From Patescibacteria group bacterium (GTDB lineage Bacteria > Patescibacteriota > Patescibacteriia > JAXHNJ01), in NCBI GenBank assembly GCA_034520665.1, contig JAXHNJ010000002.1, positions 179,166 through 243,165 of the forward strand: DNA of 64,000 nt. Reading direction: 5' to 3'. The notes beneath the pieces were generated by a model. The model made no database searches, was not told the origin of the DNA, and was given only the letters and a program-made list of their open reading frames with translations. Both the position numbers and the translations under genes were made by a program. Positions 1 to 57,352 of this stretch are shown here, in pieces (positions within the stretch are counted from its first letter, which is position 1; each line of letters starts with the position of its first letter).

Positions 1-978
1 TTCATCCACTTTTCTTTTTAAGTATTTATAATCGTCTACACCAGTGCGCGAAGGCACGGAAACCATTAAATAAGTCACTTTTTCCTGATACTCGGGATAT
101 TTTTTTAAAAAGTCACGAAAAGCCTCCAGTCGCTTAATAATACCTTTAGTATACTCCATACGGTCAACGGAAAGAATAACTTTTTGTCCGCCTATTTCTT
201 TTTTTAATTTTTTTATCTCATTTTTTACTCTTTTTCTTTTATCAGACTGGTTAAACTTATCAAAATCAATGCCCATGGGAAAACTGTCAACTTTGGTTAA
301 ATGATCCTTAACTATAATTTCACCCAGATTTGACTCATACCCCAAAAGACGAAAAACACTTTCCAGAAAATGCTGGACATAATCATAGGTATGAAAACCG
401 ACTACATCTGAACTGATTAAAGATTGTAAAATTTCCCTTGACCAGGGTATTTGACGAAAAACTTCATATGAAGGAAAAGGAATATGCAAAAAGAATCCAA
501 TATCCAGATCAGGCATTTTCTTTCTTAGCATTTCCGGTAAAAGCATTAAATGATAATCATGAATCCAGACTAAGTCGCCGGGTTTGGCTTTTTCTAAAAC
601 TGCTTCACAAAATTTATGATTTACCCTTTTATAAGCTTTCCACAATTCCTCACTATAATCAGGCAGCTGCAAAAAATAATGAAAAAGAGGCCAAACTACT
701 TTATTGGAAAAGCCATAATAAAATTCCTTAAAATCTCTCTCACTTAAATAAACTGGAGAGTAATTTTTACTTTCTAATTCTTTAGTTAGTTTTTCTCTAT
801 TATCCCCCAACTGGTTAGAAGTTAGTCCCGGCCAGCCAACCCATAAAGCTTTTCTGGACTGAAAAAAAGACTTCATAGCTGTAGCTAAACCTCCGGGTGA
901 GGATATAAAGTTTATATCATCATCTTCTATTTTAGTTTTAATCGGCAGACGGTTGGAAACTATGATCTTTTTGGACAT
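1..978 (-). CDS. otsA: Alpha,alpha-trehalose-phosphate synthase (GT20), partial: N-terminal ~325 aa, C-terminus lies beyond window start
   Basis: Hand translation of the reverse strand from the ATG at 978-976 gives MSKKIIVSNRLPIK...LWVGWPG...VVWPLFHYF...VWIHDYHLMLLP..., the hallmark OtsA N-terminal motifs. The ORF runs off the window, so it is absent from the complete-ORF track. Confidence 0.8.
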   Translation of the reverse strand, partial: MSKKIIVSNRLPIKTKIEDDDINFISSPGGLATAMKSFFQSRKALWVGWPGLTSNQLGDNREKLTKELESKNYSPVYLSERDFKEFYYGFSNKVVWPLFHYFLQLPDYSEELWKAYKRVNHKFCEAVLEKAKPGDLVWIHDYHLMLLPEMLRKKMPDLDIGFFLHIPFPSYEVFRQIPWSREILQSLISSDVVGFHTYDYVQHFLESVFRLLGYESNLGEIIVKDHLTKVDSFPMGIDFDKFNQSDKRKRVKNEIKKLKKEIGGQKVILSVDRMEYTKGIIKRLEAFRDFLKKYPEYQEKVTYLMVSVPSRTGVDDYKYLKRKVDE

Positions 979-1695: not shown

Positions 1696-1912
1696 AAAAT
1701 TCTAAGCGGACCCGATCTCCCTTTGGGAGACGATCTTCTCCGTGACCCCACACTATATTTGCTTCTTTCACAAGTGCAAAGCCGACAAAAGAGATACTAA
1801 AATTCTAAGCGGGCCCGATCTCCCTTCGGGAGACGATCTTCTCCGTGACCCCACACTATATTTGCTTCGCTCATATGTTTGGGGCAAGCAGGGAGATATA
1901 CTAAAATTCTAA
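1696..1912. repeat. Two tandem ~103-bp units, each a degenerate copy of the 3' part of the adjacent tRNA-Asp gene plus its 3' flank
   Basis: Units begin at 1701 and 1804 and share 68 nt (tctaagcggacccgatctccc-TTTG/TTCG-gggagacgatcttctccgtgacc...). Versus the real gene at 1914-1988 they keep the acceptor 3' strand, the variable region and the anticodon 3' stem. The T-arm hairpin is replaced by a different 6-bp GC hairpin, TCTCCC-loop-GGGAGA. Confidence 0.75.
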
Positions 1913-1913
1913 G

Positions 1914-1988
1914 CGGACCCGACGAGATTTGAACTCGCGATCTTCTCCGTGACAGGGAGATGTGTTAGACCAGCTACACCACGGGTCC
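1914..1988 (-). tRNA. tRNA-Asp (anticodon GTC)
   Basis: The reverse complement folds as a cloverleaf: acceptor GGACCCG/CGGGTCC, D-stem GTGT/ACAC, anticodon stem TCTCC/GGAGA with loop CTGTCAC, T-arm GCGAG-TTCAAAT-CTCGT. The gene is embedded in a 16-bp perfect inverted repeat, aattctaagcggaccc / gggtccgcttagaatt. Confidence 0.85.
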
Positions 1989-2135
1989 GCTTAGAATTCT
2001 TAGAGTATAAATATAAATTATTTTAAAATCCATTGCTTTAAATTGTAATAAATATATTAGCAGATAAATTATTATTTGTCTAGGTCAATTTATCATTAAT
2101 ATTTTTGCGAATTTATAATCTTTATCACTTTTCAC

Positions 2136-5100
2136 TTATTCAATAAGATAGCCCATATAATCAAATTGAACTACTTCTGGCGCTCCCGACATTTCTGAAG
2201 TAATAATTTCGTCTAAACCATCATTATTAACATCACCACTGGATACATAAACTCCATTTCTATTACTAGAAGAAAAAGCAAAGAATTGGCCGACCACGCC
2301 ACCATTAATATCTAGCATTCGCACATGCGGGGCTTTATTAAAGCTAGTACCGGTAATAATTTCCTGGGTGCCATTACCATCAACATCACCAGAAGCTAAA
2401 TTAACCCCACCCCGATAAGCTTGGGCATAAGCAAAAAACTGAGAAATCAAATTTCCATTGCTTTCAAATACACGAATATGAGGACCACCACTTTGATAAG
2501 GAGCGGTAATTACTTCGCCTTGGCCATTATTATTAACATCCGAAATTAAAACATTAATACCAATTCTAAAATGTTCTGGATAAGCAAAAAACTGGTCAAT
2601 TAAAGATCCCTGACCATTAAAAATTCTAACATGAGGCGCTGAAGCTCCCATAGTGCCAGTAGCAATTTCCGCCACACCGTCACCGTTTACATCCCCTACT
2701 GCCAAATTTACTCCTCTTCTAAAAGCTAAAGCATAAGCAAAAAATTGATTTTCCAGATTGCCATTCATATCAAATATTCTCACGTGAGGTCCACCACCTG
2801 GTCCAGCGGCTGTTACTATTTCTTTTTGACCATCCCCGTCAACATCACCAATATCTAAATTAAAACCCCCGCGAAAACTGTTTTGATAGGCAAAAAACTG
2901 ACTCTTTATATTCCCTAAAGAGTCAAAAACTCTGACATGAGGACCGCCACCCTGGCTGGTGCCAGTGACTATTTCCGCCGTGCCGTCGCCGTCTAAATCA
3001 GCCGTGGCTGTTTTTACACCGCCTGTGTAAAGCGAAGAGTAGGCTTTAAAACCATCACCAGATTCTAAAGAATAAAAAATATGAGGCACTTGTCCACTTG
3101 AATTAGTTACTGTAAAACCAACCGACAAGAGATCACTTTGTCCATCAGTGTTTTCTACCTTAACATCATAATAGCCCCCGGACATTTGGCCCAAAGGAAT
3201 AACCACAGTCATTTGCTCTGAACTTTTTACATAACTAATAGCTTCATGATCACCAAAATAAGTAGTAGCGCCGTGACGGAAATTTTGACCGTATAAGTCT
3301 AAGTAGGCTTGATAATCTGAGTTATCAGTTACTGATAAACGATTAGGGCTGACTGAACTGACCACTGGCGCTTCACTAGTATAAGGAGCCACGCCTCTAA
3401 TATTTATTTTTCTAATCATATCATTCCAGGAATCACAAACATATAAATATTTGGTATCATTATCAATAACCATACCCATTAAATTATTAAACTTTGTATC
3501 CGTACGGCTGCTATTATGAAATCCTCTGGTGCCTGAACCGGCTACTAGCTTAACAATATCTGAATTGAGTTCAACTAATCTAACCCGATGACTACCAGAC
3601 TCAGAAACAAAAACTTTATTAGCATAGTATTTTACATAAACTGGATAGGAAAAAACCGCTCTGGAAGCAAGTCCATCTAAATAGCCGTTTCGACCATCAC
3701 CAGCTACTGTAGTAACTTTCCCCGTAGAAATTTTTACCCGACGTATTCGATGATTATCTCGATCAGCCACATATAAGTACTGACCTGAGGAATCAATATC
3801 TATGCCATAAGGATGATTAAATTTAGCGGCTGCGCCCATACCGTCAGCAAAACCAGCTTCACCCGAGCCAGCAATAAGCCAAGTTTGACCGTCTGAAATT
3901 CGTACCTTTCTAATACGGTTATTACCGGTATCAGAAACATACAAATACTGATCATCGGGAGAAATAACTAGATTAGCCGGAATATCAAAAAGAGTCGTAT
4001 TTTTAGTACCTTCCTGATAGCCATTACCAGAGCCGGTAACATTAGTATCACCGCTGCCAGAGACTAAAAACGAGCTCTGATTGGCAATATTTACTCCTCT
4101 GATACGATTATTCCAGCGATCGGCTACATAGAGAGTATCACCGCTTGAATTAATGGTAATGCCGGAAATATTGGAAAATCGAGCGGCTGAGCCTGTCCCC
4201 TCTTCATTATTATAACTGTCAACACTGTTACCAATAACAAAGCTGGTATAACCAGTTGATAAATTTATTTTTCTGATTTTATTATTTTCAGCCAGGTAAA
4301 TATAATTGCCATCCGGTGACTTGACCATATCATAAGGACGGCCGATTAAAGCACTGGTGGAATAGCCATTACGATAACCAAAACGGTCTGACCCGACATA
4401 AACTTCATTGTCAGAGGCATCATTTTTGTTATAGCGATGAATAGTGCCGTTGCCGGCCAAATAAATATAATCGCCATGAATACGCACACCCGAAGTCGGA
4501 TAAATACTGGTCATCGAAGAGTCATAAGCAAACTGGGTAGTCTCCCCTGTTTCTGGATTAATTTTTCTAATAACCCCAATACGATTTTCATCCTCATCAG
4601 TCACATATAAATAACCTGAGGAAGCATCATAAGCAATGCCATAAACCATTCTAAAACTAGCATTACTGCCAGTACCTTCTTCATAAGCACTAGTGCTTGA
4701 GCCAGCAATTAAACTAACACTGCCAGTTGAAGTATTGACTTTAATTACACGATTATTACCTTCATCAGCCACATAAAGAGTGCTTCCGTCTGAAGAAATA
4801 GCCATTTTTCTGGGGCTGCTAATTGAAGTAGTTAAGTTATAAACAGCTCCGTTAGAGCGATTTACTTTTTTAATAGCATTATTACCGGTATCAGCAATAT
4901 ATAAATAATCGCCTTGAGCTAAAATGCCTTCTGGTGAAGATAACCCAGAAGAAATGTAAGTACTAACACTACCATAAACATCAACTTTACGAATCATGTT
5001 ATTACCGGTATCAGCTACAAAGACATTGCCGGAAGAATCAACAGTCACTCCTTTAGGTAAAGCAAATTCGGAAAGTTCAGCCGAAGCATTATAATAACCA

Positions 5101-5375
5101 TACTTACCACAACCAGCATGAGTATAAATTAGACCTTCTGGGGTTATTTTACGAATAACATTATTATAAGTATCCGCTATATAAAGATTACCTGAAGCGT
5201 CAAAAGCCACGTCATGAGGAAAATCTAAAAAAGAATCAGTAGCCGGCCCGCCATCTCCGGCATAAAGCTTACCCACAAAAGTAGTAGTATCACCATAGGC
5301 GGCTAGAGCTTGACTGGAAAAAACAAAAAAAAGACCTAAAATTAGTAAAGGTAAAAATAAATAAATTTTTCTCAT
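2136..5375 (-). CDS. Secreted NHL-repeat protein with C-terminal FG-GAP/VCBS-like repeats (1079 aa, signal peptide)
   Basis: The N-terminal signal peptide is MRKIYLFLPLLILGLFFVFSSQALA. There are many YIADTGNNRIRKV-type NHL repeats. C-terminal repeats of the form GDVDGDG..EI..G...GGPHVR.FD are FG-GAP-like. Confidence 0.7.
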   Translation of the reverse strand: MRKIYLFLPLLILGLFFVFSSQALAAYGDTTTFVGKLYAGDGGPATDSFLDFPHDVAFDASGNLYIADTYNNVIRKITPEGLIYTHAGCGKYGYYNASAELSEFALPKGVTVDSSGNVFVADTGNNMIRKVDVYGSVSTYISSGLSSPEGILAQGDYLYIADTGNNAIKKVNRSNGAVYNLTTSISSPRKMAISSDGSTLYVADEGNNRVIKVNTSTGSVSLIAGSSTSAYEEGTGSNASFRMVYGIAYDASSGYLYVTDEDENRIGVIRKINPETGETTQFAYDSSMTSIYPTSGVRIHGDYIYLAGNGTIHRYNKNDASDNEVYVGSDRFGYRNGYSTSALIGRPYDMVKSPDGNYIYLAENNKIRKINLSTGYTSFVIGNSVDSYNNEEGTGSAARFSNISGITINSSGDTLYVADRWNNRIRGVNIANQSSFLVSGSGDTNVTGSGNGYQEGTKNTTLFDIPANLVISPDDQYLYVSDTGNNRIRKVRISDGQTWLIAGSGEAGFADGMGAAAKFNHPYGIDIDSSGQYLYVADRDNHRIRRVKISTGKVTTVAGDGRNGYLDGLASRAVFSYPVYVKYYANKVFVSESGSHRVRLVELNSDIVKLVAGSGTRGFHNSSRTDTKFNNLMGMVIDNDTKYLYVCDSWNDMIRKINIRGVAPYTSEAPVVSSVSPNRLSVTDNSDYQAYLDLYGQNFRHGATTYFGDHEAISYVKSSEQMTVVIPLGQMSGGYYDVKVENTDGQSDLLSVGFTVTNSSGQVPHIFYSLESGDGFKAYSSLYTGGVKTATADLDGDGTAEIVTGTSQGGGPHVRVFDSLGNIKSQFFAYQNSFRGGFNLDIGDVDGDGQKEIVTAAGPGGGPHVRIFDMNGNLENQFFAYALAFRRGVNLAVGDVNGDGVAEIATGTMGASAPHVRIFNGQGSLIDQFFAYPEHFRIGINVLISDVNNNGQGEVITAPYQSGGPHIRVFESNGNLISQFFAYAQAYRGGVNLASGDVDGNGTQEIITGTSFNKAPHVRMLDINGGVVGQFFAFSSSNRNGVYVSSGDVNNDGLDEIITSEMSGAPEVVQFDYMGYLIE

Positions 5376-19399: not shown

Positions 19400-19635
19400 C
19401 TCTCCTTAATAAAAAAACCCTGACTTCGGCAATTAAACAAGGGTTTTTAAAATTATTAAATCTTTCTACCGAAGATTTGTTATCTAAAAGGTGTCCTGGC
19501 TTACAGAGGATTGGCTCGTCAGCCCCTTCCCCTAAAAAAGAGTGGTTATGGCCGCCTGGCTTCTCTGCTTACAGTGACGGGATCGCGCCGGATTTGTTTT
19601 TGACTTAAAAGCAAAACGCACCGGTCTTCCCTTTT
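19400..19635 (-). promoter_or_regulatory. Cobalamin (B12) riboswitch with an intrinsic-terminator expression platform
   Basis: The minus strand reads ...GGTGCG...AAATCCGGCGCGATCCCGTCACTGTAAGCAGAGAAGCCAGGCGGCC.... This matches the cobalamin aptamer consensus (GAAUCCGG, the B12 box CCCGCCACUGUAA with one substitution, and AAGCCAGGA). A hairpin AACCCTTG...CAGGGTT plus a U7 tract is followed by the AAGGAG RBS of the DUF4430 gene. Confidence 0.8.
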
Positions 19636-19674
19636 TTTCTTAAAAATTTTATTTTTAAGAAAAATATTTAATTA

Positions 19675-20208
19675 TTAATATTCAATACCTTTTCTTGCTT
19701 TTAATCCCTGGTCAAAATAATGCTTGTTTTTATTCATGATAGTTACCAAATCTGCTAGCTTAATAATTTTATCATGAGCGTTTCTTCCCGTCAAAACAAT
19801 CTCTGTGGATAAAGAATTATTTTTTAAAAACTTAATGAGTCTATCTTTTTTTATTAAACCAAAATCAAGGGCCACATTAATTTCATCTAATATTACTAAA
19901 TTATATTTTTTATTTTTAATTTTTTTAATGGCATAGGCCAAGCCTTTTTCGGCTCTTTCAAAATCTTCTTTTTTTATTTTGCTCTTATCAATAAATTTAT
20001 GGCTACCAAATTGTTTAATTTCTAAATTATTAAATTTTTTTAAGGCCTTAATTTCACTATAATCTCCTTTTTTCATAAACTGTATAATCAGGACTCGAAA
20101 ACCAGCTCCTAAGGCCCTTAAAGCTAAGCCTAAAGCAGCTGTAGTTTTTCCCTTACCTTCTCCCGTATAAACTTGAATCATATTTAGCCTAATGAACAGG
20201 CTGACCAA
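19675..20208 (-). CDS. cobO: Cob(I)yrinic acid a,c-diamide / cob(I)alamin adenosyltransferase (CobO/BtuR family)
   Basis: IQVYTGEGKGKTTAALGLALRALGAGFRVLIIQFMKK is the BtuR P-loop signature. The start may be the internal ATG at 20181, directly after the nrdJ stop. Confidence 0.85.
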   Translation of the reverse strand: MVSLFIRLNMIQVYTGEGKGKTTAALGLALRALGAGFRVLIIQFMKKGDYSEIKALKKFNNLEIKQFGSHKFIDKSKIKKEDFERAEKGLAYAIKKIKNKKYNLVILDEINVALDFGLIKKDRLIKFLKNNSLSTEIVLTGRNAHDKIIKLADLVTIMNKNKHYFDQGLKARKGIEY

Positions 20209-37678: not shown

Positions 37679-37908
37679 AAAAATTTATATTTCTTTAAAA
37701 AACCTGGTGGGCCTAATAGGAGTTAAATCCCTCGATGCTACGCGGGAAAGGTTCTATGACCCTTTTAACTCTTTTAGTTTACTCTACCCTAGTAAAATGA
37801 CAAGTGAATATAAATGATATGGTGGACGATGAAGGACTTGTCACCCTACGGGTGATCCTCCGAAGGAGGAAACCAGAGACTTCTATCGCCCGCCTGCCAA
37901 AGCAGTCA

Positions 37909-37967
37909 TGGTCGCACCTGGACTTGAACCAGGGACTTCTATCGTGTGAGGATAGCGCTCTTACTCC
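37909..37967 (-). pseudogene. tRNA-like fragment with Val-CAC-like anticodon arm, T-arm and acceptor 3' strand. The 5' acceptor/D-arm is replaced by a GC hairpin element.
   Basis: The reverse complement reads GGAGTAAGAGCG-CTATC-CTCACAC-GATAG-AAGTC-CCTGG-TTCAAGT-CCAGG-TGCGACC-A. No matching 5' acceptor strand (GGTCGCA) is present. Instead it is preceded by the CGTCCCGC-TTT-GCGGGACG hairpin and GGATCC. Confidence 0.4.
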
Positions 37968-38033
37968 CGTCCCGCAAAGCGGGACGTGGATCCTCGAAGT
38001 TCTAGCGAAATCGAAGATTTCGATAACTTCGGG

Positions 38034-38105
38034 ACAGCTGAGCCCCGTCTCCCGCAGGGAGACGGGATCCCGATTTCCGACAAAGTCGGAACATCGGGAC
38101 TAATC
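38034..38105. repeat. 72-bp direct repeat, copy 1 of 2 (copy 2 at 38468-38539, one mismatch). Contains a perfect 10-bp-stem hairpin plus GGGATCC.
   Basis: acagctgagCCCCGTCTCCCgcaGGGAGACGGGatcccgatTTCCGACaaaGTCGGAAcatcgggactaatc occurs twice, 434 bp apart, bracketing the GIY-YIG gene and tRNA-Val. Confidence 0.85.
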
Positions 38106-38342
38106 GTTACATATTTTCTTAATTATTTTTGCGCTTTTCTTTTTTTTCAAAAATCTCTCTCTTTGATAAGCTGATTCTATATTAGGATATTTTTCTAATC
38201 TTACAAGAATGAAAGGCTGACGATGTTTTGTGGACTTGGATAATCCTTTATTATGTTCTGAAAAACGCTTATTAAAATTATTTGTTACCCCAATATAATA
38301 CTTAAAATCTTTTTGGCTTTTTAATATATAAACATAATACAT
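38100..38342 (-). CDS. GIY-YIG nuclease superfamily protein (80 aa)
   Basis: MYYVYILKSQKDFKYYIGVTNNFNKRFSEHNKG matches the GIY..YIG..R..EH motif. Confidence 0.8.
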   Translation of the reverse strand: MYYVYILKSQKDFKYYIGVTNNFNKRFSEHNKGLSKSTKHRQPFILVRLEKYPNIESAYQRERFLKKKKSAKIIKKICND

Positions 38343-38351
38343 ATTTTACTA

Positions 38352-38425
38352 TGGGCGCGATAGGACTTGAACCTATGACCTTACGGATGTGAACCGTACA
38401 CTCTGACCAGCTGAGCTACGCGCCC
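38352..38425 (-). tRNA. tRNA-Val (anticodon CAC)
   Basis: Reverse complement: GGGCGCG-TA-GCTC-AGCTGGTCA-GAGT-G-TACGG-TTCACAT-CCGTA-AGGTC-ATAGG-TTCAAGT-CCTAT-CGCGCCC-A. Confidence 0.85.
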
Positions 38426-38467: not shown

Positions 38468-38539
38468 ACAGCTGAGCCCCGTCTCCCGCAGGGAGACGGG
38501 ATCCCGATTTCCGATAAAGTCGGAACATCGGGACTAATC
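38468..38539. repeat. 72-bp direct repeat, copy 2 (see 38034-38105)
   Basis: Identical to copy 1 except gacaaag/gataaag. It lies just 5' (on the minus strand) of tRNA-Val. Confidence 0.85.
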
Positions 38540-49222: not shown

Positions 49223-51511
49223 TTATTCACTCTTTAATTCATTTAATCTTTGCTTAACATTTTCATTTTCCGGATTTAACTTTTCAACAGCTTCCATAGC
49301 TGAAATAGCCTTGTCAATTTCTTTTTGTTTTTCATAAATAACTGATAACTGCCAATAGGCGTTTGAATGGCCCGGAAATAAATTAACTACTTTCTGAAAA
49401 TTTGTTTCCGCTTTCTCTAAATTATCTTGATTTAAATGAATCCGACCTAACTCATAAAATAAACTATAATCAAGTGGGTATTTATCAACTAAGAGAGTTA
49501 ATTCATTAATAGCTATTTCAATATCTCCTTTAAATTCATAAGTTAAGGCTCTGGCAGTTTGAGCTAAAACATAATTATTTTTCAAGTCTATAGCTCTTTC
49601 ATAGTTTTTTATGGCTAAATTAAATAAATTATCTACGGTTTCTTGGGCTTCTGACTGGTTTTCTTCCGATAATTGTTTTAGGGAATTTTTAAGAGTTTGT
49701 CCGCTGGTGGCATAATAATTAGCCAAATTATAATAACGCTTGGGATTATTCTCGTCTAAATTAATAGCTTTATTAAAATTATCCACTATTTTATCAGAAA
49801 TATCATCGCGTGTTAAAAGATTTATATCCTGATAAAGATAAGCTAAATTAGAATATATCTCGGGATCTTTACTGTTCAAATCAAGAGCTCTATTAGCATA
49901 AGTTAATGAATTTGAGATATATTGCTGTAATTCAGTGGCATCGGGATTCATTTTTTGTGAAAGAAGTTGCGCTCTAACTAAATAATTTTGGGCTAAGGAA
50001 ATATTATAGCCAACATGCCAACTGTAATTATTAATGGCTTTTACTAAATAATTTTCTACATTCTCAAGACTCTCCTGTTTTTCCAGAGAGTTATTAGCTT
50101 CTTTAAAATAATAATTAGCTAACCAAAACCGTCCGCTAAAATATATTACTACTATTGCTAATATAATCACTAAGGAAAGACCTAAGGAAGAAAAAGCGTT
50201 TCGGTACTTTTCCAGCAAACGAGAATATTTTTCTTTATTTTTAAAGCTGAGATAACTCAACCCTAAAGCAAAAAAAGTAAAAAGTAAAAATAGATGAGAA
50301 AAAGAATAAGCAAAAAACAACCCCGAAAGAAAAAGCACTCCGGATCCGCTTATAAAAATTATTAGATAATTTCTTTCTTTTTGAGATCTTGATTGATAAA
50401 ATCTTTTAATCAAAGAAAGAGTAAAGAAAACAAAAAGCGATAAAAAACTAAGAAACCCTAAAATACCAAGAGTGCTGGTTATCTGCCACCATTCATTGCC
50501 CGCTTTAATAAAATTCAAATCCCAGTAAGCAGAGTTATTAAAAGAAACCGGACGAAAACGGAAAAAATTATAATAGAAAGTACTGGGACCAGAGCCAAAG
50601 AGCGCATTTTTACTTAAACTGCCTTTAGTTATTTCTAGGGAAGTTTGTTGATTTAAGGATATATCATCAGACAAACCAATATTATAAACAGAGGTAACAT
50701 TAAAGAAAATCATTAATATAGCAAAAGCAATAATTAAAGCCGATAAACTGATCCATTTAGCTTTTATATCTTTTTGTTTAACAGAAAAGAAAAAAAGTAA
50801 AATCACAAAACCAATAATCAAAGCGTACCAGCCCGCATTAATATCAATTAAAAAAAGTATAATTAAATTTAATAAAAAATATAAAGAGAGTAAGACTTTC
50901 TGCCATTTTAGGCGACTGAGCCTAACTAAAATAAAACTCAATAGAGACATAAAACTCAGATAAACAGCCAAACCTCTGATAGTAGAACTAAAAAAATTAA
51001 AGCCGATTTGATTGGAGAAATCCCAAGGTAGTATATTCAAGCCGAAAATTTTTATCAGATAATAAACTGAAGAAAAAATAGAAGCAAATATCAGAAGATA
51101 AAAAAAGTGCTTTATTTCTTTCTTGTCCTTGATGGTATTTACCAAGATAAATAAAAAAATAATGAAAAAAATTATAGATAAAAGACTATGATGATAATAA
51201 TTGGTTTGTCCTAAAAGGCTATACTTGAGCTGATAGGAAAAAATTGTGGCTACTAGAAATATTAGACCAAAAATAATTAAAGGGGTGGAAAGAGAGGTTT
51301 TTTTTATTTTTTTGTCTTTACTGGTTGAAAAATCAGCAAACCAAAAAACAGCGGCTAAAGAAACCAGTAAATAAAAAAGAATTGTCTTGTTAAATTCTAA
51401 AACTTCAGAAGTTAAGGGTAAAAAGAAAATAGGTACCAAAAAAACTGTCAGATATAATATTGCTTTGGCAGTAGCCTTAAAGCTAATTTTGTCTTTTATT
51501 TTTTTCAACAT
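49223..51511 (-). CDS. Polytopic membrane protein (O-antigen ligase/Wzy-like) with a C-terminal TPR-repeat domain (762 aa)
   Basis: About 12 TM helices in the N-terminal 460 aa. The C-terminal 300 aa carry repeated TPR-like ...A..Y.....Y.KA..L... motifs. Confidence 0.6.
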   Translation of the reverse strand: MLKKIKDKISFKATAKAILYLTVFLVPIFFLPLTSEVLEFNKTILFYLLVSLAAVFWFADFSTSKDKKIKKTSLSTPLIIFGLIFLVATIFSYQLKYSLLGQTNYYHHSLLSIIFFIIFLFILVNTIKDKKEIKHFFYLLIFASIFSSVYYLIKIFGLNILPWDFSNQIGFNFFSSTIRGLAVYLSFMSLLSFILVRLSRLKWQKVLLSLYFLLNLIILFLIDINAGWYALIIGFVILLFFFSVKQKDIKAKWISLSALIIAFAILMIFFNVTSVYNIGLSDDISLNQQTSLEITKGSLSKNALFGSGPSTFYYNFFRFRPVSFNNSAYWDLNFIKAGNEWWQITSTLGILGFLSFLSLFVFFTLSLIKRFYQSRSQKERNYLIIFISGSGVLFLSGLFFAYSFSHLFLLFTFFALGLSYLSFKNKEKYSRLLEKYRNAFSSLGLSLVIILAIVVIYFSGRFWLANYYFKEANNSLEKQESLENVENYLVKAINNYSWHVGYNISLAQNYLVRAQLLSQKMNPDATELQQYISNSLTYANRALDLNSKDPEIYSNLAYLYQDINLLTRDDISDKIVDNFNKAINLDENNPKRYYNLANYYATSGQTLKNSLKQLSEENQSEAQETVDNLFNLAIKNYERAIDLKNNYVLAQTARALTYEFKGDIEIAINELTLLVDKYPLDYSLFYELGRIHLNQDNLEKAETNFQKVVNLFPGHSNAYWQLSVIYEKQKEIDKAISAMEAVEKLNPENENVKQRLNELKSE

Positions 51512-51515
51512 AAAA

Positions 51516-52373
51516 TTATTTAGTTATTTTATTTACTATTGAACTTAACTCTTCCTCAGAATAAAATTGAATGGTGATCTTCCCTTTTTTACCACGCTTG
51601 TTAATCTCTACTTTAGTACCGAGATGACTGCGTAACATATCTTCTTTTTCAATAATATTGGGTTCAATCGGACCACGCTGGCCCTTTTTCCCTTTTTTGC
51701 TCCGTCGGGTAAAATCTTCAGTTTTACGCACTGAGAGGTTGTTTTTTATGATTTTTTTAAAAAGCTTAAGTTGTTCTTTCTCACTTGGCAAAGCTAAGAT
51801 AGCTTTAGCATGACCTCCAGTTATTTTCTCTTCAGCCAGGCCTCTCTGTATTTTCAAGGGCAAGCTTAAAATTCTCAAGGTATTACTAACAGATTCACGG
51901 CTCTTACCCACTCGTTTGGCAATTTTATCCTGAGTAAGCTCAAACTCATCCACTAATTTCTGAAAAGCTACTGCTTCTTCTAAGGGATTTAAATTTTTTC
52001 TTTGTAAGTTTTCGACCAAAGCTAACTCCAACTTTTCCTGGCTAGTAGCGTCGCGTATAATAGCTGGGACAGTTTTTAAGCCTATAATTTTAGAGGCTTT
52101 AAGACGCCTCTCGCCAGCAATTAAAGAATAACCTTCGGTGCTTTTAGTCAATATTAAAGGCTGCAAAATACCGTGTTCTTTAATAGAATTAATTAATTCC
52201 TCTAATTCTTCATGGCCTATTTTTTCTCGGGGCTGAAAAGGATTAGCTTCAATTTGGCCGGTTTTTATTTTCAATATCTTTTCTTCATCAATCAAATCAA
52301 CGATTTCGCTCTTTCTTTTTTTAGCCGGGATAAGTGAACTTAATCCGCGGCCTAAAGCTTTATTGTTTGCCAT
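51516..52373 (-). CDS. parB: Chromosome partitioning protein ParB
   Basis: ...LIAGERRLKASKIIGLKTVPAIIR... is the ParB box, followed by an HTH. Confidence 0.9.
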   Translation of the reverse strand: MANNKALGRGLSSLIPAKKRKSEIVDLIDEEKILKIKTGQIEANPFQPREKIGHEELEELINSIKEHGILQPLILTKSTEGYSLIAGERRLKASKIIGLKTVPAIIRDATSQEKLELALVENLQRKNLNPLEEAVAFQKLVDEFELTQDKIAKRVGKSRESVSNTLRILSLPLKIQRGLAEEKITGGHAKAILALPSEKEQLKLFKKIIKNNLSVRKTEDFTRRSKKGKKGQRGPIEPNIIEKEDMLRSHLGTKVEINKRGKKGKITIQFYSEEELSSIVNKITK

Positions 52374-52377
52374 AATT

Positions 52378-53133
52378 TTATTCTAAAATTTCTCTTGATA
52401 ATTTATGATAAGCCTTGGCTCCTCTTGATTTCTTATCATATTTTAATATAGATTTTCCGTGTGAAGGAGATTCCGCCAATTTAATGCAACGCGGAATAGT
52501 GGTACGAAAAATTTTGTTAGGAAAATATTTATAAAGCTCATGAAAAACATCTCGCGAAAGCTTATATTTAGAATCAAACATGGTTATCAAAGCGCCTAAA
52601 ATCTCTAAATCTGGATTTAAATTTTCCTTAATCAAATCGATAGTTTCCATAAGCTGTCCCAACCCCTCCAAAGCATAATATTCCGCCTGAACTGGTACAA
52701 TTACTTCTTGGCAGGCTACAATACCATTTATTGTTAAAAGTCCTAGTGAAGGCGGGCAATCAATAATTATAAAATCATAGTTGCTTTCTAGTTGACTTAC
52801 CTTTCGGCCCAATATATACTCTCTGTCCGAAAAGTTAACTAGTTCTACATTAGCTCCGGCTAAATCAACATGCGAGGGCACTAAACAATAATCACGGTGT
52901 TTAGTTTTTAAAATTACGTCTTCAATCGGATGATCATCAATAATTACATCATAAATACCCCTTTTTATTTTCCTTATATTTTTCCCTAAACCTGAGCTAG
53001 CGTTAGCCTGGGGATCAATATCCACCAAAAGAACTTTGTAGCCTAAATAAGAAAGATAAGCCCCTATATTAATAGCGCTGGTGGTTTTCCCAACCCCTCC
53101 TTTCTGATTGACAATTGAAATAATTCTGGCCAT
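52378..53133 (-). CDS. parA: Chromosome partitioning ATPase ParA/Soj
   Basis: ISIVNQKGGVGKTTSAINIGAYLS is the deviant Walker A. Confidence 0.9.
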   Translation of the reverse strand: MARIISIVNQKGGVGKTTSAINIGAYLSYLGYKVLLVDIDPQANASSGLGKNIRKIKRGIYDVIIDDHPIEDVILKTKHRDYCLVPSHVDLAGANVELVNFSDREYILGRKVSQLESNYDFIIIDCPPSLGLLTINGIVACQEVIVPVQAEYYALEGLGQLMETIDLIKENLNPDLEILGALITMFDSKYKLSRDVFHELYKYFPNKIFRTTIPRCIKLAESPSHGKSILKYDKKSRGAKAYHKLSREILE

Positions 53134-53229
53134 TGTTTAATTTAAAAAACTTCTCTCTTTATAAATTATACAAAAAATTGGCCAAATTGACAACCAGCCG
53201 TTTTTTTTCTAAAATATACCTACCCTTAA

Positions 53230-53313
53230 GCCGCGGTGGTGGAATTGGTAGACACGCTGGATTCAAAATCCAGTGAGGGCAACCTCATGAGAGTTCAAGT
53301 CTCTCCCGCGGCA
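53230..53313 (+). tRNA. tRNA-Leu (anticodon CAA)
   Basis: GCCGCGG...CTGGA-TTCAAAA-TCCAG with a long variable arm TGAGGGCAACCTCAT, then GAGAG-TTCAAGT-CTCTC-CCGCGGC-A. Confidence 0.85.
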
Positions 53314-53327
53314 TATTTCCCAAACCT

Positions 53328-54083
53328 ATGAATACCTATTTCATTTCCGGAGAGCAATATGATATTCAATATCAGGGTTATCAAGAAGACCTGAAGTTTT
53401 ATTTATCAGAAATTAAAAAAGCTAATAGTACCTTAGAAATCGGCTGTGGCACCGGACGCATACTTTTATTAGCTTTGAAAAAAGGATATAAAATCGAAGG
53501 ATTGGACGGCTCAAAAAGTATGCTAAAAAAATTAAAAGAAAAAGCTAAAAAAGAAAACTTGGAGCCAAAAACTTATTTTGCTGATATGAAAAATTTTAAG
53601 CTTGATAAAAAATATAACTTAATTATAGTGCCTTTCCGCACCTTTTTACATTTAGATTCAGTCCAAGAACAAAAAGAGAGTCTAAAAAATTTTTACCGGC
53701 ATTTGAAAAAAAACGGACGATTAATTCTAAACTTTTTCAATCCTGATTATAAAAGAATGTCTTTTCAAAAAAACAAAAAAGAATTTCATTCAATAGTTAA
53801 AGATCCAGTGACTAAAAATAAAATAAAGATATACGCTATTAATCACTATTATCCAGCTAATCAGACTATAAAAACTAAATTTATTCATGAAGAAGTAGAT
53901 AAAAATAATCTCTTATTAAATAAAAAAGAATATAATCTTAAATTAAAATATATTTTCCGCTTTGAATTTGAACATCTTTTAACTTTAATGAAATTTAAAC
54001 CCCTAAAACTTTATGGAAGCTTTAAACGGAGAAAATTTACCGACGAATCCAGAGAAATGATCTGGATTGCTAAAAAGACGTAA
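53328..54083 (+). CDS. Class I SAM-dependent methyltransferase
   Basis: ...LEIGCGTGRILLLALKKGYKIEGLDGS... is motif I of Rossmann-fold methyltransferases. Confidence 0.8.
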   Translation: MNTYFISGEQYDIQYQGYQEDLKFYLSEIKKANSTLEIGCGTGRILLLALKKGYKIEGLDGSKSMLKKLKEKAKKENLEPKTYFADMKNFKLDKKYNLIIVPFRTFLHLDSVQEQKESLKNFYRHLKKNGRLILNFFNPDYKRMSFQKNKKEFHSIVKDPVTKNKIKIYAINHYYPANQTIKTKFIHEEVDKNNLLLNKKEYNLKLKYIFRFEFEHLLTLMKFKPLKLYGSFKRRKFTDESREMIWIAKKT

Positions 54084-54190
54084 AATACTTGACCTTTGGT
54101 ATTATTTTTGTTAAGATAGATTGTAAATACTCTAACAAAAAAATAGCGTGGAGTGGGATCCTGTCCCTTTTCAAAGAAAGAGTAGTATAT

Positions 54191-54362
54191 TGAAAAACTT
54201 GAAAATATAAAGACATCATCAATCTTAACAACATCGCGGGGTGGAGTCCCGTCCCGTTGAGCGGGACGAGGATCCGCGTTATCATCATATAACGATGATA
54301 ACGGGACAGTGGTATATTGAAAAACTTGAAATAAAAAAAGATATCATCAATCTTAACAACAT
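54191..54362. repeat. Partial duplication of the tRNA-fMet 5' flank plus its first 12 nt, fused to GC hairpin elements
   Basis: gaaaaacttgaaa...atcatcaatcttaacaacatCGCGGGGTGGAG occurs at 54191-54245 and again at 54318-54375 (the real gene). The first copy continues into TCCCGTCCCG-TTGA-GCGGGACG-AGGATCC and a 10-bp-stem hairpin, CGTTATCATC-atataac-GATGATAACG. Confidence 0.75.
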
Positions 54363-54437
54363 CGCGGGGTGGAGCAGTGGCAGCTCGCCGGGCTCATAAT
54401 CCGGAGGTCGAGGGTTCGAATCCCTCCCCCGCAACCA
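54363..54437 (+). tRNA. tRNA-Met (anticodon CAT), initiator-like, CCA encoded
   Basis: CGCGGGG-TG-GAGC-AGTGGCA-GCTC-G-CCGGG-CTCATAA-TCCGG-AGGTC-GAGGG-TTCGAAT-CCCTC-CCCCGCA-A-CCA. The C1xA72 mismatch is typical of the bacterial initiator. Confidence 0.8.
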
Positions 54438-54462
54438 AAATGATTTTTTTTATTTACAACAC

Positions 54463-54906
54463 GCCAGGGTAGCTCTCGCCCGCTAGCGCCTGAGCGCAAG
54501 CGATGGCGAGCGGGTAGTTGATTAGAGCGTATATTAAATTTTAAAAGCTAAATTATACTACTATAAATTATAAGCCAGGGTAGCTCTCGCCCGCTAGCGC
54601 CTGAGCGCAAGCGATGGCGAGCGGGTAGTTGATTAGAGCGTATATTAAATTTTAAAAGCTAAATTATACTACTATAAATTATAAGCCAGGGTAGCTCTCG
54701 CCCGCTAGCGCCTGAGCGCAAGCGATGGCGAGCGGGTAGTTGATTAGAGCGTATATTAAATTTTAAAAGCTAAATTATACTACTATAAATTATAAGCCAG
54801 GGTAGCTCTCGCCCGCTAGCGCCTGAGCGCAAGCGATGGCGAGCGGGTAGTTGATTAGAGCGTATATTAAATTTTAAAAGCTAAATTATACTACTATAAA
54901 TTATAA
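54463..54906. repeat. Tandem array of four identical 111-bp units, each beginning with the first 13 nt of the downstream tRNA-Met gene
   Basis: Units start at 54463, 54574, 54685 and 54796. Each reads GCCAGGGTAGCTC + tcgcccgctagcgcctgagcgcaagcgatggcgagcgggtag + ttgattagagcg + a 40-nt AT-rich tail. A fifth unit at 54907 is the intact tRNA. Not CRISPR-like: there are no unique spacers. Confidence 0.9.
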
Positions 54907-54983
54907 GCCAGGGTAGCTCAGTTGGTTAGAGCACGGGACTCATAAGCCCGGGGTCGTGGGTTCGAATCCCACCCCTGGTACCA
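54907..54983 (+). tRNA. tRNA with CAT anticodon (elongator Met, or Ile2/lysidine type), CCA encoded
   Basis: GCCAGGG-TA-GCTC-AGTTGGTTA-GAGC-A-CGGGA-CTCATAA-GCCCG-GGGTC-GTGGG-TTCGAAT-CCCAC-CCCTGGT-A-CCA. Confidence 0.8.
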
Positions 54984-55064
54984 AGCCTTCACTCCTGCGG
55001 AGTTTCAGCTTGTAAACAAAAAAACAGACTCTAAAATAGCCTGTTTTTTTGTTTATCTAATATT

Positions 55065-55862
55065 TTAATTTATGGCAAACATTTTATTATGCATTTCCCA
55101 AAACTTACCCTGATCAGCGGCACATTCAGCTGCTTCAGCAGCAATTTGAGCATTTTGATGAATACTGGTTAGCGGAAAATGACGAAAAACAAATTTAGCC
55201 TGATCCTTATATTCCTGGTATAGCTCTTCCATAGTAGGAGCATGTCTGGTACAATATGGACATTCAAAATCAGAATACTCGACAAAAATTAATTTATTGC
55301 CACTACCTCTGATATTATCATCATCAGCAATTTTAATGTCTACTGGTTCGCCTTCAGCTACATATTGAGAGGTGGGAGCACTGCCAGCCAATATTTCATC
55401 AATAATAGTATCAAATTCACTTTTTGGCAAAGCCCCGGAAACCAAATAACCGTTGATAAAAGTGGCCGGAGTGCCATTTACACCCAATTCTGTGGCCTCG
55501 CTTTGGCTTTGTGTAACCGTATCAGTTTTATCACCATTACTCATACATTCATTGAATTTTTCTGTGTCCAATCCGATCTCAGAAGCGTATGTCATAATAT
55601 TAGTGGGACTAACATTTGATTCTTCTACTGCTGTATCCGTATCAGCATCAGTATCAGCTGTATCTTCAACTCCGGCTACACTTTCACTATCATTATCACT
55701 AACAGATCTAAACACAGTTAAAGAAAGAGTAATTCCAACTACAGCTGAAAATACTAAACCAACTAAAAGACCCATAATAAAGGTATTTTTAGGAGGGGCG
55801 TCTAAAATTCCTTTTCCTTTTTTTTCTTTTTTTGATGATTTATTATTTTTTTCTTTTTCCAT
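55065..55862 (-). CDS. DsbA-like thiol:disulfide oxidoreductase (thioredoxin fold), membrane-anchored
   Basis: ...FVEYSDFECPYCTRHAP... carries the CPYC active site. An N-terminal TM and an acidic linker are present. Confidence 0.8.
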   Translation of the reverse strand: MEKEKNNKSSKKEKKGKGILDAPPKNTFIMGLLVGLVFSAVVGITLSLTVFRSVSDNDSESVAGVEDTADTDADTDTAVEESNVSPTNIMTYASEIGLDTEKFNECMSNGDKTDTVTQSQSEATELGVNGTPATFINGYLVSGALPKSEFDTIIDEILAGSAPTSQYVAEGEPVDIKIADDDNIRGSGNKLIFVEYSDFECPYCTRHAPTMEELYQEYKDQAKFVFRHFPLTSIHQNAQIAAEAAECAADQGKFWEMHNKMFAIN

Positions 55863-55924
55863 TTAATTGTTCTCCTTTTTATCTATTAATTTTTACTTAT
55901 TTATTATATTACCAAAGAATATAA

Positions 55925-56140
55925 TTTATGTCAAGAAAAAAGAAATACTCCGATGCCCTCCCGGTCCGCCGCACAAGACTTTGGCAGGCGGGGCCTCGGA
56001 GCTTGACCATTAATAAAGATTTGGCTGCGCTGAGTCCTGCACGCCGAAGCCTATCATATTATTAGTTTACTTATAATTTAGGCTCCGCTATCCTTCCCCA
56101 AGGCCAAGTATTGGGGCTGGCCGCGAAGGCGTGTCAACCA
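55925..56140. ncRNA. GC-rich (~55-60% GC in a ~33% GC genome) structured island. Candidate small RNA of unknown class; strand undetermined.
   Basis: Multiple GC helices are visible, for example CCCCAA-ggccaagta-TTGGGG with a possible pseudoknot to CTGGCC, and CGGAGC...GCTCCG. It has no coding potential longer than 26 aa. It lies between two minus-strand genes. Confidence 0.3.
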
Positions 56141-57352
56141 TTAAATAATAATTATAATCCCAATTAAATATATGACTAATAAAGTATAAACTATATTAGG
56201 GCGGTGTTGCACTCTAACTTTAATTAGTAAATTAAGGACTAAGACTAAGCTTAACAAAATAAACAAGGCCATAAAGAAATTTCTTGAGTAAAGTATCATT
56301 TTAACCAGTCTTTCTGAGGTAAAAAAGTTAGCCGGTTTCAAAACAGAATTTTTAAAATAATTGGTGGAAACTACTGGCGTAGAGACTACATTTTTATTCT
56401 CATCTTCAGTTATTACGATTACATTTTGATTGGGCTTATTATCTCCTTCTTTTACTGAGCCAATATAATCATCTCCTTTTTTGGATAATTCATTAGTTTC
56501 ATCATTTATTTGAACAACTACTTTTGTTTCTTCTGGTTTCTCTTCCTCTTTTTTTTCTTCTTCATTTTTTGCCTCAGTCTTATCTTCTTGGGCTGGCTCT
56601 TCTTTTTCTAATTTGGTAACTATATCATAAGTATTTTCTTCTACCGAAGGTATAACTACTGTTTCTTCTTTATTTACTTCGGGCAAAGATTTTTCTTCTG
56701 TTACCTCTTCAGTTACTGTTTGACTAGGCGGACTTTTTTCAACTACTTCTTTGGTAGTAGTAGTTTCGGTCAGTTTAGTTTTTGGAGCCGGTGTACCAAA
56801 CATCTGAACAACTAAAGTAGTCTTAGCTCCTTTAAAATCACCCTCCAAAACAGCCAGACCAATCTGAGTATAATTACCATTTAAAATATTTCTTTTATGG
56901 CTGGCACTGACCATCCAAGCAGATATAATATCTTCTCCTCTGACAAAATCCATAGCCAGGTTTTCCCCAGCATAAGCGTATTCATAACCAGCCTGTTTAA
57001 ACCAATACCAGGGAGAAGTATTAGAGGGACTATAGTGGGAAAAATACTGCTTGGACAGCATATCTTGGGCTTTGGCATTGGCTGCCTGGCTTAGCAAAGG
57101 ATTAAGTTCAAGCTGATTCAGTCCATTATTCAGTCTCTGCTGATTGGTCATATTTATAATATTCTGATTGGTAATATCTATTGGTTGTACTGATAGCGGA
57201 GAAAAGATCAGCAGAAAAGAAACACCAATTTTTAATAAAACGGCTAAAACTGCAATTATCTTAAGAGAATTATGCCTCATTAAAAAAGGCAGGTATTTAT
57301 TACCCTGATGCGGTATGAAGCTACTATGAAGATGTCTGGAATATTTATTCAT
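56141..57352 (-). CDS. CAP (SCP/PR-1-like) domain protein, membrane-anchored with a long Glu/Lys/Thr-rich linker
   Basis: ...YFSHYSPSNTSPWYWFKQAGYEYAYAGENLA...HKRNILNGNYTQIGLAV... are the CAP motifs. Confidence 0.75.
   Translation of the reverse strand: MNKYSRHLHSSFIPHQGNKYLPFLMRHNSLKIIAVLAVLLKIGVSFLLIFSPLSVQPIDITNQNIINMTNQQRLNNGLNQLELNPLLSQAANAKAQDMLSKQYFSHYSPSNTSPWYWFKQAGYEYAYAGENLAMDFVRGEDIISAWMVSASHKRNILNGNYTQIGLAVLEGDFKGAKTTLVVQMFGTPAPKTKLTETTTTKEVVEKSPPSQTVTEEVTEEKSLPEVNKEETVVIPSVEENTYDIVTKLEKEEPAQEDKTEAKNEEEKKEEEKPEETKVVVQINDETNELSKKGDDYIGSVKEGDNKPNQNVIVITEDENKNVVSTPVVSTNYFKNSVLKPANFFTSERLVKMILYSRNFFMALFILLSLVLVLNLLIKVRVQHRPNIVYTLLVIYLIGIIIII

Follow-up and report, generated by a model that had tools for sequence, protein, structure and literature searches.

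What process produced the tandem array of tRNA gene fragments that lies between the initiator and the elongator methionine tRNA genes of a Patescibacteria genome? The array is located in a 64-kb stretch of DNA (hereinafter, the window) of 34% GC, which is part of a 698-kb contig of a Patescibacteria metagenome-assembled genome from NCBI, and it consists, as assembled, of four identical 111-bp units (54463-54906) that directly precede the intact tRNA-Met gene (hereinafter, the Met array). The explanation that we favor, and consider reasonably probable, is that the Met array is a relic, devoid of open reading frames (ORFs), of a selfish cassette of Patescibacteria that combines a GIY-YIG nuclease gene with a piece of a tRNA gene, and that this relic was expanded by recombination. 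Below, loci from public genomes and metagenomes are denoted by our own labels (L020, L067 and so on), and nucleotides (nt) of tRNA genes are numbered from the 5' end.

Tandem Repeats Finder (TRF) delineates the array as 54463..54919, with a period of 111, 4.1 copies, 100% matches and no indels (score 914), which makes it the one outstanding array of the window. Exact matches to nt 1-13 of tRNA-Met start at 54463, 54574, 54685 and 54796, and matches to nt 14-26, at 92% identity, start at 54516, 54627, 54738 and 54849. The resulting layout of the array and the sequence that follows it is as follows.

54463-54475, plus strand: unit 1, part a, nt 1-13 of tRNA-Met, GCCAGGGTAGCTC (exact-match mapping)
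54476-54515, plus strand: unit 1, part b, a 40-nt GC hairpin insert, TCGCC...GCGGGT (fold and alignment to the cassette-linked hairpin family described below)
54516-54529, plus strand: unit 1, part c, AGTTGATTAGAGCG, 14 nt, an older-type copy of nt 14-27 with 2 mismatches
54530-54573, plus strand: unit 1, part d, an AT-rich spacer of 44 nt
Units 2-4, plus strand: the layout of unit 1 at +111, +222 and +333
54907-54983, plus strand: intact elongator tRNA-Met (CAT) with encoded CCA (ARAGORN; Rfam, 68.9 bits)
55018..55052, plus strand: terminator-like hairpin followed by a T run, resembling the sequence after the displaced tRNA-Met copy of L067 (flank comparison by eye)

A terminator scan made no call on the hairpin at 55018..55052. 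The earlier note on this DNA had described the units as chimeric tRNA-fragment repeats, present in four identical copies before the tRNA-Met gene; TRF, exact-match mapping and the tRNA calls all agree with this description, the units being 100% identical in the assembled window, and the sole difference is the placement of the boundary of the insert, which was given there as 42 nt and is parsed here as 40 nt. The insert folds into a single long imperfect hairpin (minimum free energy as DNA, -14.0 kcal/mol; z = -2.35), and the fold of the entire unit is marginally better than those of shuffled sequences (z = -1.8). The tRNA fragments at this locus stop at nt 18-28, so that the flanking 'exons' are truncated. 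The nt 14-27 segment of the units carries G27, as does the tRNA-Met of L067, whereas the present tRNA-Met of the window has A27. The unit can be aligned with the cassette hairpin family at the matching tRNA position, with a loose likeness and an expanded interior. In Logan, a separate assembly of short reads from this sample (SRR26473340) has exact matches to window positions 50328-54244 and 54934-55958 and breaks inside the repeats, the expected effect of true repeats longer than the k-mer; the exact number of Met units we infer to be four.

A similar arrangement precedes the neighboring tRNA-fMet gene.

54363-54437, plus strand: intact initiator-type tRNA-fMet (CAT) (ARAGORN; Rfam tRNA, 64.1 bits)
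54193-54246, plus strand: copy 1 of the fMet upstream spacer, a direct repeat with 54321-54374 (54 nt, 85% identity)
54247-54306, plus strand: double hairpin of 60 nt between fMet nt 12 and 13, TCCCGTCCCG-ttgag-CGGGACGA-GGATCC-G-CGTTATCATC-atataac-GATGATAACG-GGA
54146-54167, plus strand: oldest, decayed fMet unit, GCGTGGAG (degraded fMet nt 1-12) followed by TGGGATCCTGTCCC (double-hairpin remnant), read from the sequence
54089-54117, plus strand: sigma-70-like promoter TTGACC-17-TAAGAT, just after the methyltransferase gene

Both 54-nt spacer copies end in CGCGGGGTGGAG, that is, fMet nt 1-12 (in copy 1, an exact 12-nt match at 54235-54246). The double hairpin, which consists of two adjacent hairpins (-20.5 kcal/mol, z = -5.74), is followed immediately by CAGTGG, fMet nt 13-18 (54307-54312), and its conserved half-element is also found in other Patescibacteria. 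The decayed unit still holds the GGATCC core of this hairpin family. The observation in the earlier note that the fMet 5' flank plus 12 nt is duplicated and fused to hairpins is borne out by the 54-nt repeat and the double hairpin. The promoter at 54089-54117 is the sole strong plus-strand match in 54000-55100, and its positional orthologue in L067 is TTGACT-17-TAATAT, upstream of fMet; judging from the sequence, it probably drives the whole region from fMet through the array to Met as one transcript. The idea that every Met unit carries a promoter is unsupported, all promoter matches within the units being on the minus strand. Given the lack of plus-strand matches in the units and the single good promoter upstream, the Met array is probably merely a transcribed spacer.

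Hairpin-split partial copies accompany four of the five tRNA genes in the window (Met, fMet, Val and Asp), tRNA-Leu alone being clean, and 10 of the 22 perfect GC-rich hairpins in the window are located at tRNA loci; the proposal of the earlier note that one systematic process also operated at tRNA-Asp and tRNA-Val is thus upheld. The tRNA-Val locus includes the window's only GIY-YIG gene of this kind, the product of which shares the catalytic Y, Y, G, R, H and E with its relatives.

38352-38425, minus strand: intact tRNA-Val
38100..38342, minus strand: GIY-YIG nuclease gene, 80 aa, between the intact tRNA-Val and a hairpin-split pseudo-tRNA-Val (Pfam GIY-YIG, E = 2e-17)
37841..38105, minus strand: displaced tRNA-Val copies (sequence, repeats, folds and match mapping)
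38468..38539, minus strand: upstream tRNA-Val 'solo' unit, a double hairpin plus GCTCAGCTG, 99% identical to 38034-38105 (72-nt direct repeat, spacing 434)
1696..1912, minus strand: two 103-bp tandem units downstream of tRNA-Asp (1913-1988) (direct repeats, spacing 103/104; exact matches)

The pseudo-tRNA-Val(CAC) is missing nt 1-9; its D-arm nt 10-18 (38035-38043) has a double hairpin on each side, 38044-38099 and 37965-38034 (z = -7.3 and -7.9), and the remainder of the pseudo-tRNA occupies 37909-37964; a further tRNA-Val 3' fragment carries two hairpins in the T-loop (37841-37870). Each of the tRNA-Asp units consists of nt 36-51, a 15-nt hairpin (TCTCCC-loop-GGGAGA) that replaces the T-arm, and nt 67-76 together with the trailer. 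The leader and trailer of tRNA-Asp itself are complementary (AATTCTAAGC ... GCTTAGAATT; 1903-1999, minus strand), which makes the acceptor stem longer by about 10 bp, and the trailer is repeated after each downstream Asp fragment.

The orthologous Met locus of a relative is in a different state. In L067, a 255-kb contig with a methyltransferase homologue 63% identical to that of the window and with a shared gene order (TPR-ParB-ParA-methyltransferase and the DsbA-like gene), a spacer of 1 nt separates fMet from the intact tRNA-Met, and the array is absent. There, tRNA-Met is followed by a 94-aa GIY-YIG ORF (Pfam, 4.8e-13) and then by a second tRNA-Met copy, which matches the intact gene at nt 5-15, 19-49 and 53-76 and is split twice, in the D-loop and in the T-stem, by hairpins whose arms are the same (CTTGCCCCGCC...GGCGGGGTGAAG). 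The tRNA-Leu(CAA) gene, which is located between the genes for ParA and the methyltransferase, is on opposite strands in L067 (2371-2456) and in the window (53230-53313), suggesting a local inversion of this tRNA gene. In L071, which encodes a methyltransferase with 67% identity, a GC-rich multi-hairpin block (GGCGAGCCCTCGCTCGCC...GGCGAAAGCGAGGGCTTTCGCC; 3767-3830) is located right after the methyltransferase gene, and the short-read contig ends about 100 nt further on; this block is probably another remodelled fMet locus.

Overall, tRNA fragments that GC hairpins interrupt in a loop, next to an intact copy, were detected at about 15 independent Patescibacteria loci, involving 12 tRNA species. 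The usual arrangement is an 80-94 aa GIY-YIG gene between the tRNA fragment and the intact gene; the intact tRNA is kept beside the fragment in every case, and the breakpoints are in conserved loop-coding segments. Two hairpin families were followed. The homologues of the L067 nuclease (47-73% identity) belong, in every case where an organism name is available, to Patescibacteria. From this homologue set, seven contexts, picked mainly for long contigs, were inspected, and in all seven the gene is at most 60 nt from an intact tRNA (Thr-TGT, Val-GAC twice, Lys-CTT, Ile-TAT, Ile-GAT and Thr-CGT). A hairpin-split tRNA copy is present in six of the seven, beyond the ORF in L072, L073, L076, L077 and L080 and upstream of the ORF in L079. 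In addition, ORF-less upstream units are present as single copies in L073 and L080 and as two tandem copies in L076. They take the form of tRNA nt 1-12 to 1-15, a hairpin, a few more tRNA nt and a short spacer (in the L076 tandem, nt 1-15, the hairpin, TAGAGCATGTCTT and a 20-nt spacer), which is the anatomy of the Met units of the window.

The hairpin of these cassettes together with the adjoining D-stem bases (TTAGCTCAG-CTYGCCCCGCC-loop-GGCGGGGTRAAG-TAGAGC) is nearly invariant in eight copies, one of which has a divergent 3' end. The hairpin is read in differing frames among the loci, and in the body of the ORF 7 of the 77 third codon positions are invariant; given its conservation at the nucleotide level across frames, the hairpin is a part of the unit rather than a by-product of coding. 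The pseudo-copies of L067 and L077 are identical to the respective intact gene save for two or three hairpins, which implies, as far as the alignments go, that these hairpins probably were inserted recently; in L077, the pseudo-tRNA-Lys equals the intact gene except for three hairpin insertions, so hairpins seem to accumulate faster than point changes.

The second family, that of the double hairpin, was explored by scanning public genomes and metagenomes with the pattern TCCCGTCCCG-N5-CGGGACG-N-GGATCC, which was derived from the fMet and Val loci of the window. The genome-wide scan yielded 57 matches, mostly chance matches in GC-rich Actinobacteria, and the three informative loci examined are annotated as Patescibacteria or Parcubacteria. 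In the Patescibacteria loci found with the pattern, the element interrupts a tRNA fragment at a loop-coding position, and no target bases are duplicated:

L040: tRNA-Ala, element between nt 10 and 11
L063: tRNA-Leu, element between nt 18 and 19
L066: tRNA-Pro, element between nt 19 and 20
L020: tRNA-Glu, element between nt 35 and 36
L065: T-loop in the 3' fragment of an unidentified tRNA, element between nt 55 and 56

In L066, L020, L065 and L048, a GIY-YIG ORF of 80-100 aa separates the fragment from the intact gene and lies at the element or close to it. The cleanest case is L066, where the double hairpin separates nt 1-19 from nt 20-27 of tRNA-Pro; a 14-nt stretch then leads to the ORF, whose stop codon falls within the D-arm of the intact tRNA-Pro that follows. 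In L020, the GIY-YIG ORF is retained within tandem units of 337 bp, of which there are at least two. With respect to the tRNA and to the GIY-YIG gene, the double-hairpin element is found in either orientation, and is therefore more readily understood as a feature of the DNA than as an RNA motif. The catalytic residues Y, Y, G, R, H and E of the GIY-YIG proteins are invariant (Pfam E = 2e-17 to 5e-13), and their closest relatives with solved structures are UPF0213 (5e-16) and SLX1 (1.5e-8), followed at a distance by I-TevI (2e-3).

Several further features of these loci were recorded. Downstream of tRNA-Arg(GCG), L048 contains two 3' fragments (CGATTCCTGTCGAGGGCAT) and a shorter third one, each after GC hairpins (5000-5330), and on the upstream side a 5' fragment, a double hairpin and the GIY-YIG ORF, so that there are arrays on both sides of the gene; L048 shares a contig with L060, and a near-identical locus, L064, is on another contig. 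At L077 (1-488 and 642-962), tRNA-Arg(TCT) has a 5' fragment with a double hairpin upstream and a pseudo-copy cut in three by hairpins downstream, and an ORF of the Phage_integrase family, the only integrase observed near these loci, is located about 150 nt upstream of the tRNA-Arg(TCT) fragment. ARAGORN calls the hairpin-bearing pseudo-tRNA-Val at L076 1446-1522 as a tRNA gene. A viral origin was considered and rejected, neither of the two hairpin patterns being present in IMG/VR contigs. A full-text literature search returned no account, for Patescibacteria, of tRNA fragments split by hairpins or of GIY-YIG cassettes linked to tRNAs.

The scenario that we propose for these loci is the following. 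A complete cassette would consist of a small stand-alone GIY-YIG gene (80-94 aa) and a replacement piece of a tRNA gene. It would enter a tRNA gene at a loop-coding position, usually in the D-loop, so restoring the gene, and the displaced part of the old gene would stay alongside, split by a GC-rich hairpin that occupies the former place of the loop and travels with the cassette. Two mirror layouts are observed, namely (i) a 5' fragment with the hairpin and a few more tRNA nt, the GIY-YIG gene and the intact tRNA, or (ii) the intact tRNA, the GIY-YIG gene and the hairpin-split old copy. The nuclease gene would be easily lost, plausibly when its short flanking direct repeats recombine, leaving an ORF-less solo unit composed of tRNA nt 1 to x, the hairpin, nt x+1 to y of the older allele and a short AT-rich spacer. 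Such solo units would multiply in tandem through homologous recombination, possibly triggered by out-of-register repair of breaks in the tRNA gene or by unequal sister exchange, and this multiplication would give identical copies that end exactly at the D-loop junction. The Met array would then represent four solo units and the fMet locus one fresh and one decayed unit, the transcribed fragments presumably being discarded during tRNA processing. What the sequences show is the anatomy of these loci, its recurrence, the linkage to GIY-YIG genes and the differing states of one orthologous locus; we infer cutting of tRNA genes by the nuclease, movement of the cassette via homing-like repair and amplification driven by breaks, the difference between the window and L067 at the orthologous tRNA-Met locus being the sole indirect sign of such copying-in. 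The hairpin might destroy the target site, interrupt the homology through which the cassette would otherwise be deleted, block tRNA-like folding of the leftover, or serve as a substrate of the nuclease.

Several observations weigh against this scenario. No GIY-YIG ORF or detectable remnant thereof is present in or next to the Met/fMet region: a hidden Markov model (HMM) built from 11 GIY-YIG proteins gave noise only against six-frame translations of the Met, fMet and Asp spacers, and a likeness to 'YIEKLE' spotted by eye in the fMet spacer has E = 24 with the same HMM. The link of the Met array to the nuclease accordingly rests on analogy and on the L067 locus. The proteins are bare catalytic domains, closer to UPF0213/SLX1 than to I-TevI, and contain, at 80-94 aa, no sequence-specific DNA-binding module for a long recognition site; we therefore do not file them as homing endonucleases, and structure-specific cutting is equally possible. 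Most of the intact tRNAs next to cassettes retain the canonical D-loop, which leaves the immunity of the host gene to cutting unaccounted for, and the model does not explain how the hairpins originated or how they are copied into further loops. As pointed out above, the likeness of the Met insert to the family hairpin is loose, and plain replication slippage could have expanded the array instead. Finally, the loci of the second family (Ala, Leu, Pro, Glu and the T-loop case) were found via the hairpin pattern itself, which is a biased sampling.

Other explanations of the array have to be weighed against the relic of a selfish cassette. The hairpins could be independent miniature palindromic mobile elements that insert in dispensable tRNA-like sequences, with the fragments made by ordinary tandem duplication and the GIY-YIG genes as mere bystanders. 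This view fits the double hairpins, which may point either way with respect to the tRNA as well as the GIY-YIG gene, the one conserved half-element shared by genomes of 34-50% GC, the two or three hairpins per otherwise identical pseudo-copy in L067 and L077, which suggest repeated insertion, and the presence of hairpins without a nuclease gene in the window at Met, fMet and Asp and in L040 at Ala. It is, however, hard to reconcile with a single hairpin family that, in eight copies and in differing tRNA species, occupies the fixed site of the displaced D-loop beside a GIY-YIG ORF, or with the confinement of hairpins of this type, in the 64-kb window, to tRNA loci; there are neither target-site duplications nor transposon-type terminal inverted repeats, and the coincidence of the fragment breakpoints with the hairpins is left unexplained, so that we regard this explanation as unlikely. 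Repeats of the miniature inverted-repeat transposable element (MITE) or repetitive extragenic palindrome (REP) type were rejected separately, the insertions being exact, with no duplicated target bases, and no transposase having been seen in the loci examined. An even less probable possibility is that the array is a functional RNA or regulatory element, such as a set of tandem promoters for tRNA-Met, a processing leader, or decoy tRNA 5' halves directed against tRNA-targeting nucleases. The units are located between two essential tRNAs and are probably co-transcribed with them, selection or concerted evolution could account for their perfect identity, the hairpin has a stable fold, and amplified tRNA segments are adaptive in phage T6 (PMC13096335). 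Yet the units contain no plus-strand promoter match and match no Rfam family, the fold of the whole unit is barely above shuffles, the syntenic L067 manages with array-free fMet and Met genes 1 nt apart, one unit (54146-54167) has decayed, and the fragments, lacking most of the tRNA, cannot be charged. In view of this whole-unit z-score, of related double hairpins that may point either way, of the decayed copies and of the array-free relative, there is no support for the suggestion in the earlier note that a unit might resemble a tRNA 5' half or a minihelix.

Incomplete copies of a tRNA beside the intact one are also the classic signature of integrative elements (PMC9897764), and the fragments could be attachment (att) site duplications left by integrase-mediated islets that were later deleted; the breakpoints are in loops, including the anticodon loop and the T-loop, and L077 does contain the integrase-family ORF mentioned above. 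Against this, there is no recombinase near Met/fMet (the neighbors are ParA, ParB, the methyltransferase and the DsbA-like protein) or near Val (signal peptidase and glycosyltransferase), and none was found in the related loci other than L077. The Met/fMet repeats are 5' parts (nt 1-13 and nt 1-12) broken in the D-loop rather than the usual 3' parts, the 'inserted' DNA would total just 111 bp, and the gene that is consistently located between the copies encodes a GIY-YIG nuclease; this origin is very improbable. We assign a comparably small chance to an assembly artefact, whereby a single chimeric unit was over-expanded by the assembler. The units are perfectly identical, the 444-bp array exceeds the length of short reads, and the independent short-read assembly breaks at the repeat; but the window is a part of a 698-kb contig, true repeats do break k-mer assemblies, analogous tandem units are present in independent assemblies (L076 and L020), and the chimeric unit along with the fMet, Val and Asp structures would remain even at one copy. 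The array is not a CRISPR array, as the earlier note correctly stated, the whole 111-bp unit being identical throughout, with no spacers. A tRNA intron (group I or bulge-helix-bulge) was rejected as well, the exons being incomplete, with fragments that end at nt 18-28. A known ribozyme, riboswitch or intron was rejected on the Rfam result: searches with gathering thresholds on the whole window and with E <= 1 on 53200-56300 found only tRNAs at the locus, and the few other matches are weak ones to plastid-UTR (untranslated region) families that overlie the tRNAs.

Among known systems, several resemble parts of the putative cassette. Fungal mitochondrial free-standing endonuclease ORFs (for example, in Allomyces atp6) enter a gene and bring along a duplicate of its end, so that the copy carried by the element restores the host gene and the original part remains as a pseudo-fragment by the endonuclease gene. 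Unlike the cassette, these ORFs are organellar, target protein-coding genes, encode LAGLIDADG or larger GIY-YIG enzymes, and are not known to include a conserved hairpin that splits the leftover. Double-hairpin elements of Allomyces are comparable GC-rich palindromic mini-elements. The hairpins of the window resemble, moreover, the GC clusters of yeast mitochondria (PMC4478555) and the palindromic elements of Rickettsia in their short length and high GC content, their single or double hairpin fold and their AT-rich genomic background (here, a 34% GC window with z-scores of -5.7 to -7.9 for the double hairpins and -2.35 for the Met insert), and, like elements of the GC-cluster type, they conserve structure over sequence, are inserted multiple times and are associated with recombination hot-spots. 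They differ from GC clusters in being confined to tRNA-gene fragments at precise loop-coding sites without target duplication, and one of the hairpin families is physically tied to a nuclease cassette.

The closest parallel for the amplification comes from the free-standing GIY-YIG enzymes of T-even phages, where, as in the cassette, a nuclease gene is located among tRNA genes (SegB; PMC2330249, PMC13096335). SegB of phage T6 cleaves within tRNA genes and, together with the recombination proteins UvsX and UvsY, is required for the unstable tandem amplification of a tRNA-containing segment (PMC13096335). It is inherited with flanking tRNA DNA, and its recombination-dependent, unstable tandem arrays are comparable to the proposed expansion of the Met array. 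Unlike the cassette, SegB is phage-borne, is described as site-specific with a sequence preference, and leaves no hairpin-split gene fragments; conversely, the cassette proteins are chromosomal, consist of the catalytic domain alone (80-94 aa), are nearer to UPF0213/SLX1, and have a putative nuclease role. The tRNA fragments of integrative elements (PMC9897764) are, like the Met array, partial copies beside an intact gene that can confuse tRNA annotation, and the Met array differs from them by the absence of an integrase, the presence of both 5' and 3' fragments, the D-loop breaks, the hairpins and the tandem multiplicity of about 100-bp units. Introns of group I within the tRNA genes of Patescibacteria (PMC13011429) occur in the same phylum and in the same target genes as the cassette loci, and the site of the tRNA-Glu element of L020, 35/36, is the insertion site reported for such introns (PMC13011429); in contrast to them, the inserts described here are 15-70 nt long and have no ribozyme core and no Rfam match, and their flanking 'exons' are truncated, which leaves nothing to be spliced into a tRNA. 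The papers on rRNA insertions in the Candidate Phyla Radiation (CPR) (PMC11270868) and on tRNA group I introns (PMC13011429) deal with different phenomena. In none of the systems compared does a mini-nuclease encoded on the chromosome occur together with both a replacement piece of the tRNA and a conserved hairpin that splits the leftover.

Two features of the window lie outside the tRNA arrays. A full-length cobalamin riboswitch aptamer is located at 19469-19679 on the minus strand (72.9 bits, E = 5e-16) and is unrelated to these arrays. Between the DsbA-like gene (55065-55862, minus strand) and the next gene (56141-57352, minus strand), there is a non-coding, GC-rich (>60%) segment of about 200 nt (55941-56143) that has no Rfam match at E <= 1 and may be an unannotated structured RNA or leader.

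Taking all these loci together, we tentatively put forward a broader interpretation, with less confidence than the explanation of the Met array itself. Patescibacteria would harbor previously undescribed minimal selfish elements, each composed of a SLX1/UPF0213-like GIY-YIG protein of about 85 aa, a tRNA piece and a conserved GC hairpin. These elements would enter loop-coding positions, possibly recognizing DNA structure over sequence, restore the gene and leave a hairpin-split copy; the hairpins would spread into further loops, and recombination would build and collapse arrays such that tRNA loci are continually remodelled throughout the phylum, the Met array being one fossil of this process. 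If true, this would account for the GC-rich hairpins and partial tRNA copies that litter the tRNA neighborhoods of these tiny genomes and would give a concrete role to the widespread, uncharacterized mini-nucleases of the UPF0213 type. Furthermore, nuclease-driven amplification of tRNA segments, so far reported for a phage enzyme only, would extend to bacterial chromosomes. In practical terms, tRNA predictors may call the pseudo-copies and so inflate tRNA counts, as exemplified by the ARAGORN call of the pseudo-tRNA-Val in L076, and the sites of the tRNA arrays are break points of short-read assemblies in such genomes. The Met array itself is a relic of modest interest, and it is the underlying process that merits a systematic survey.

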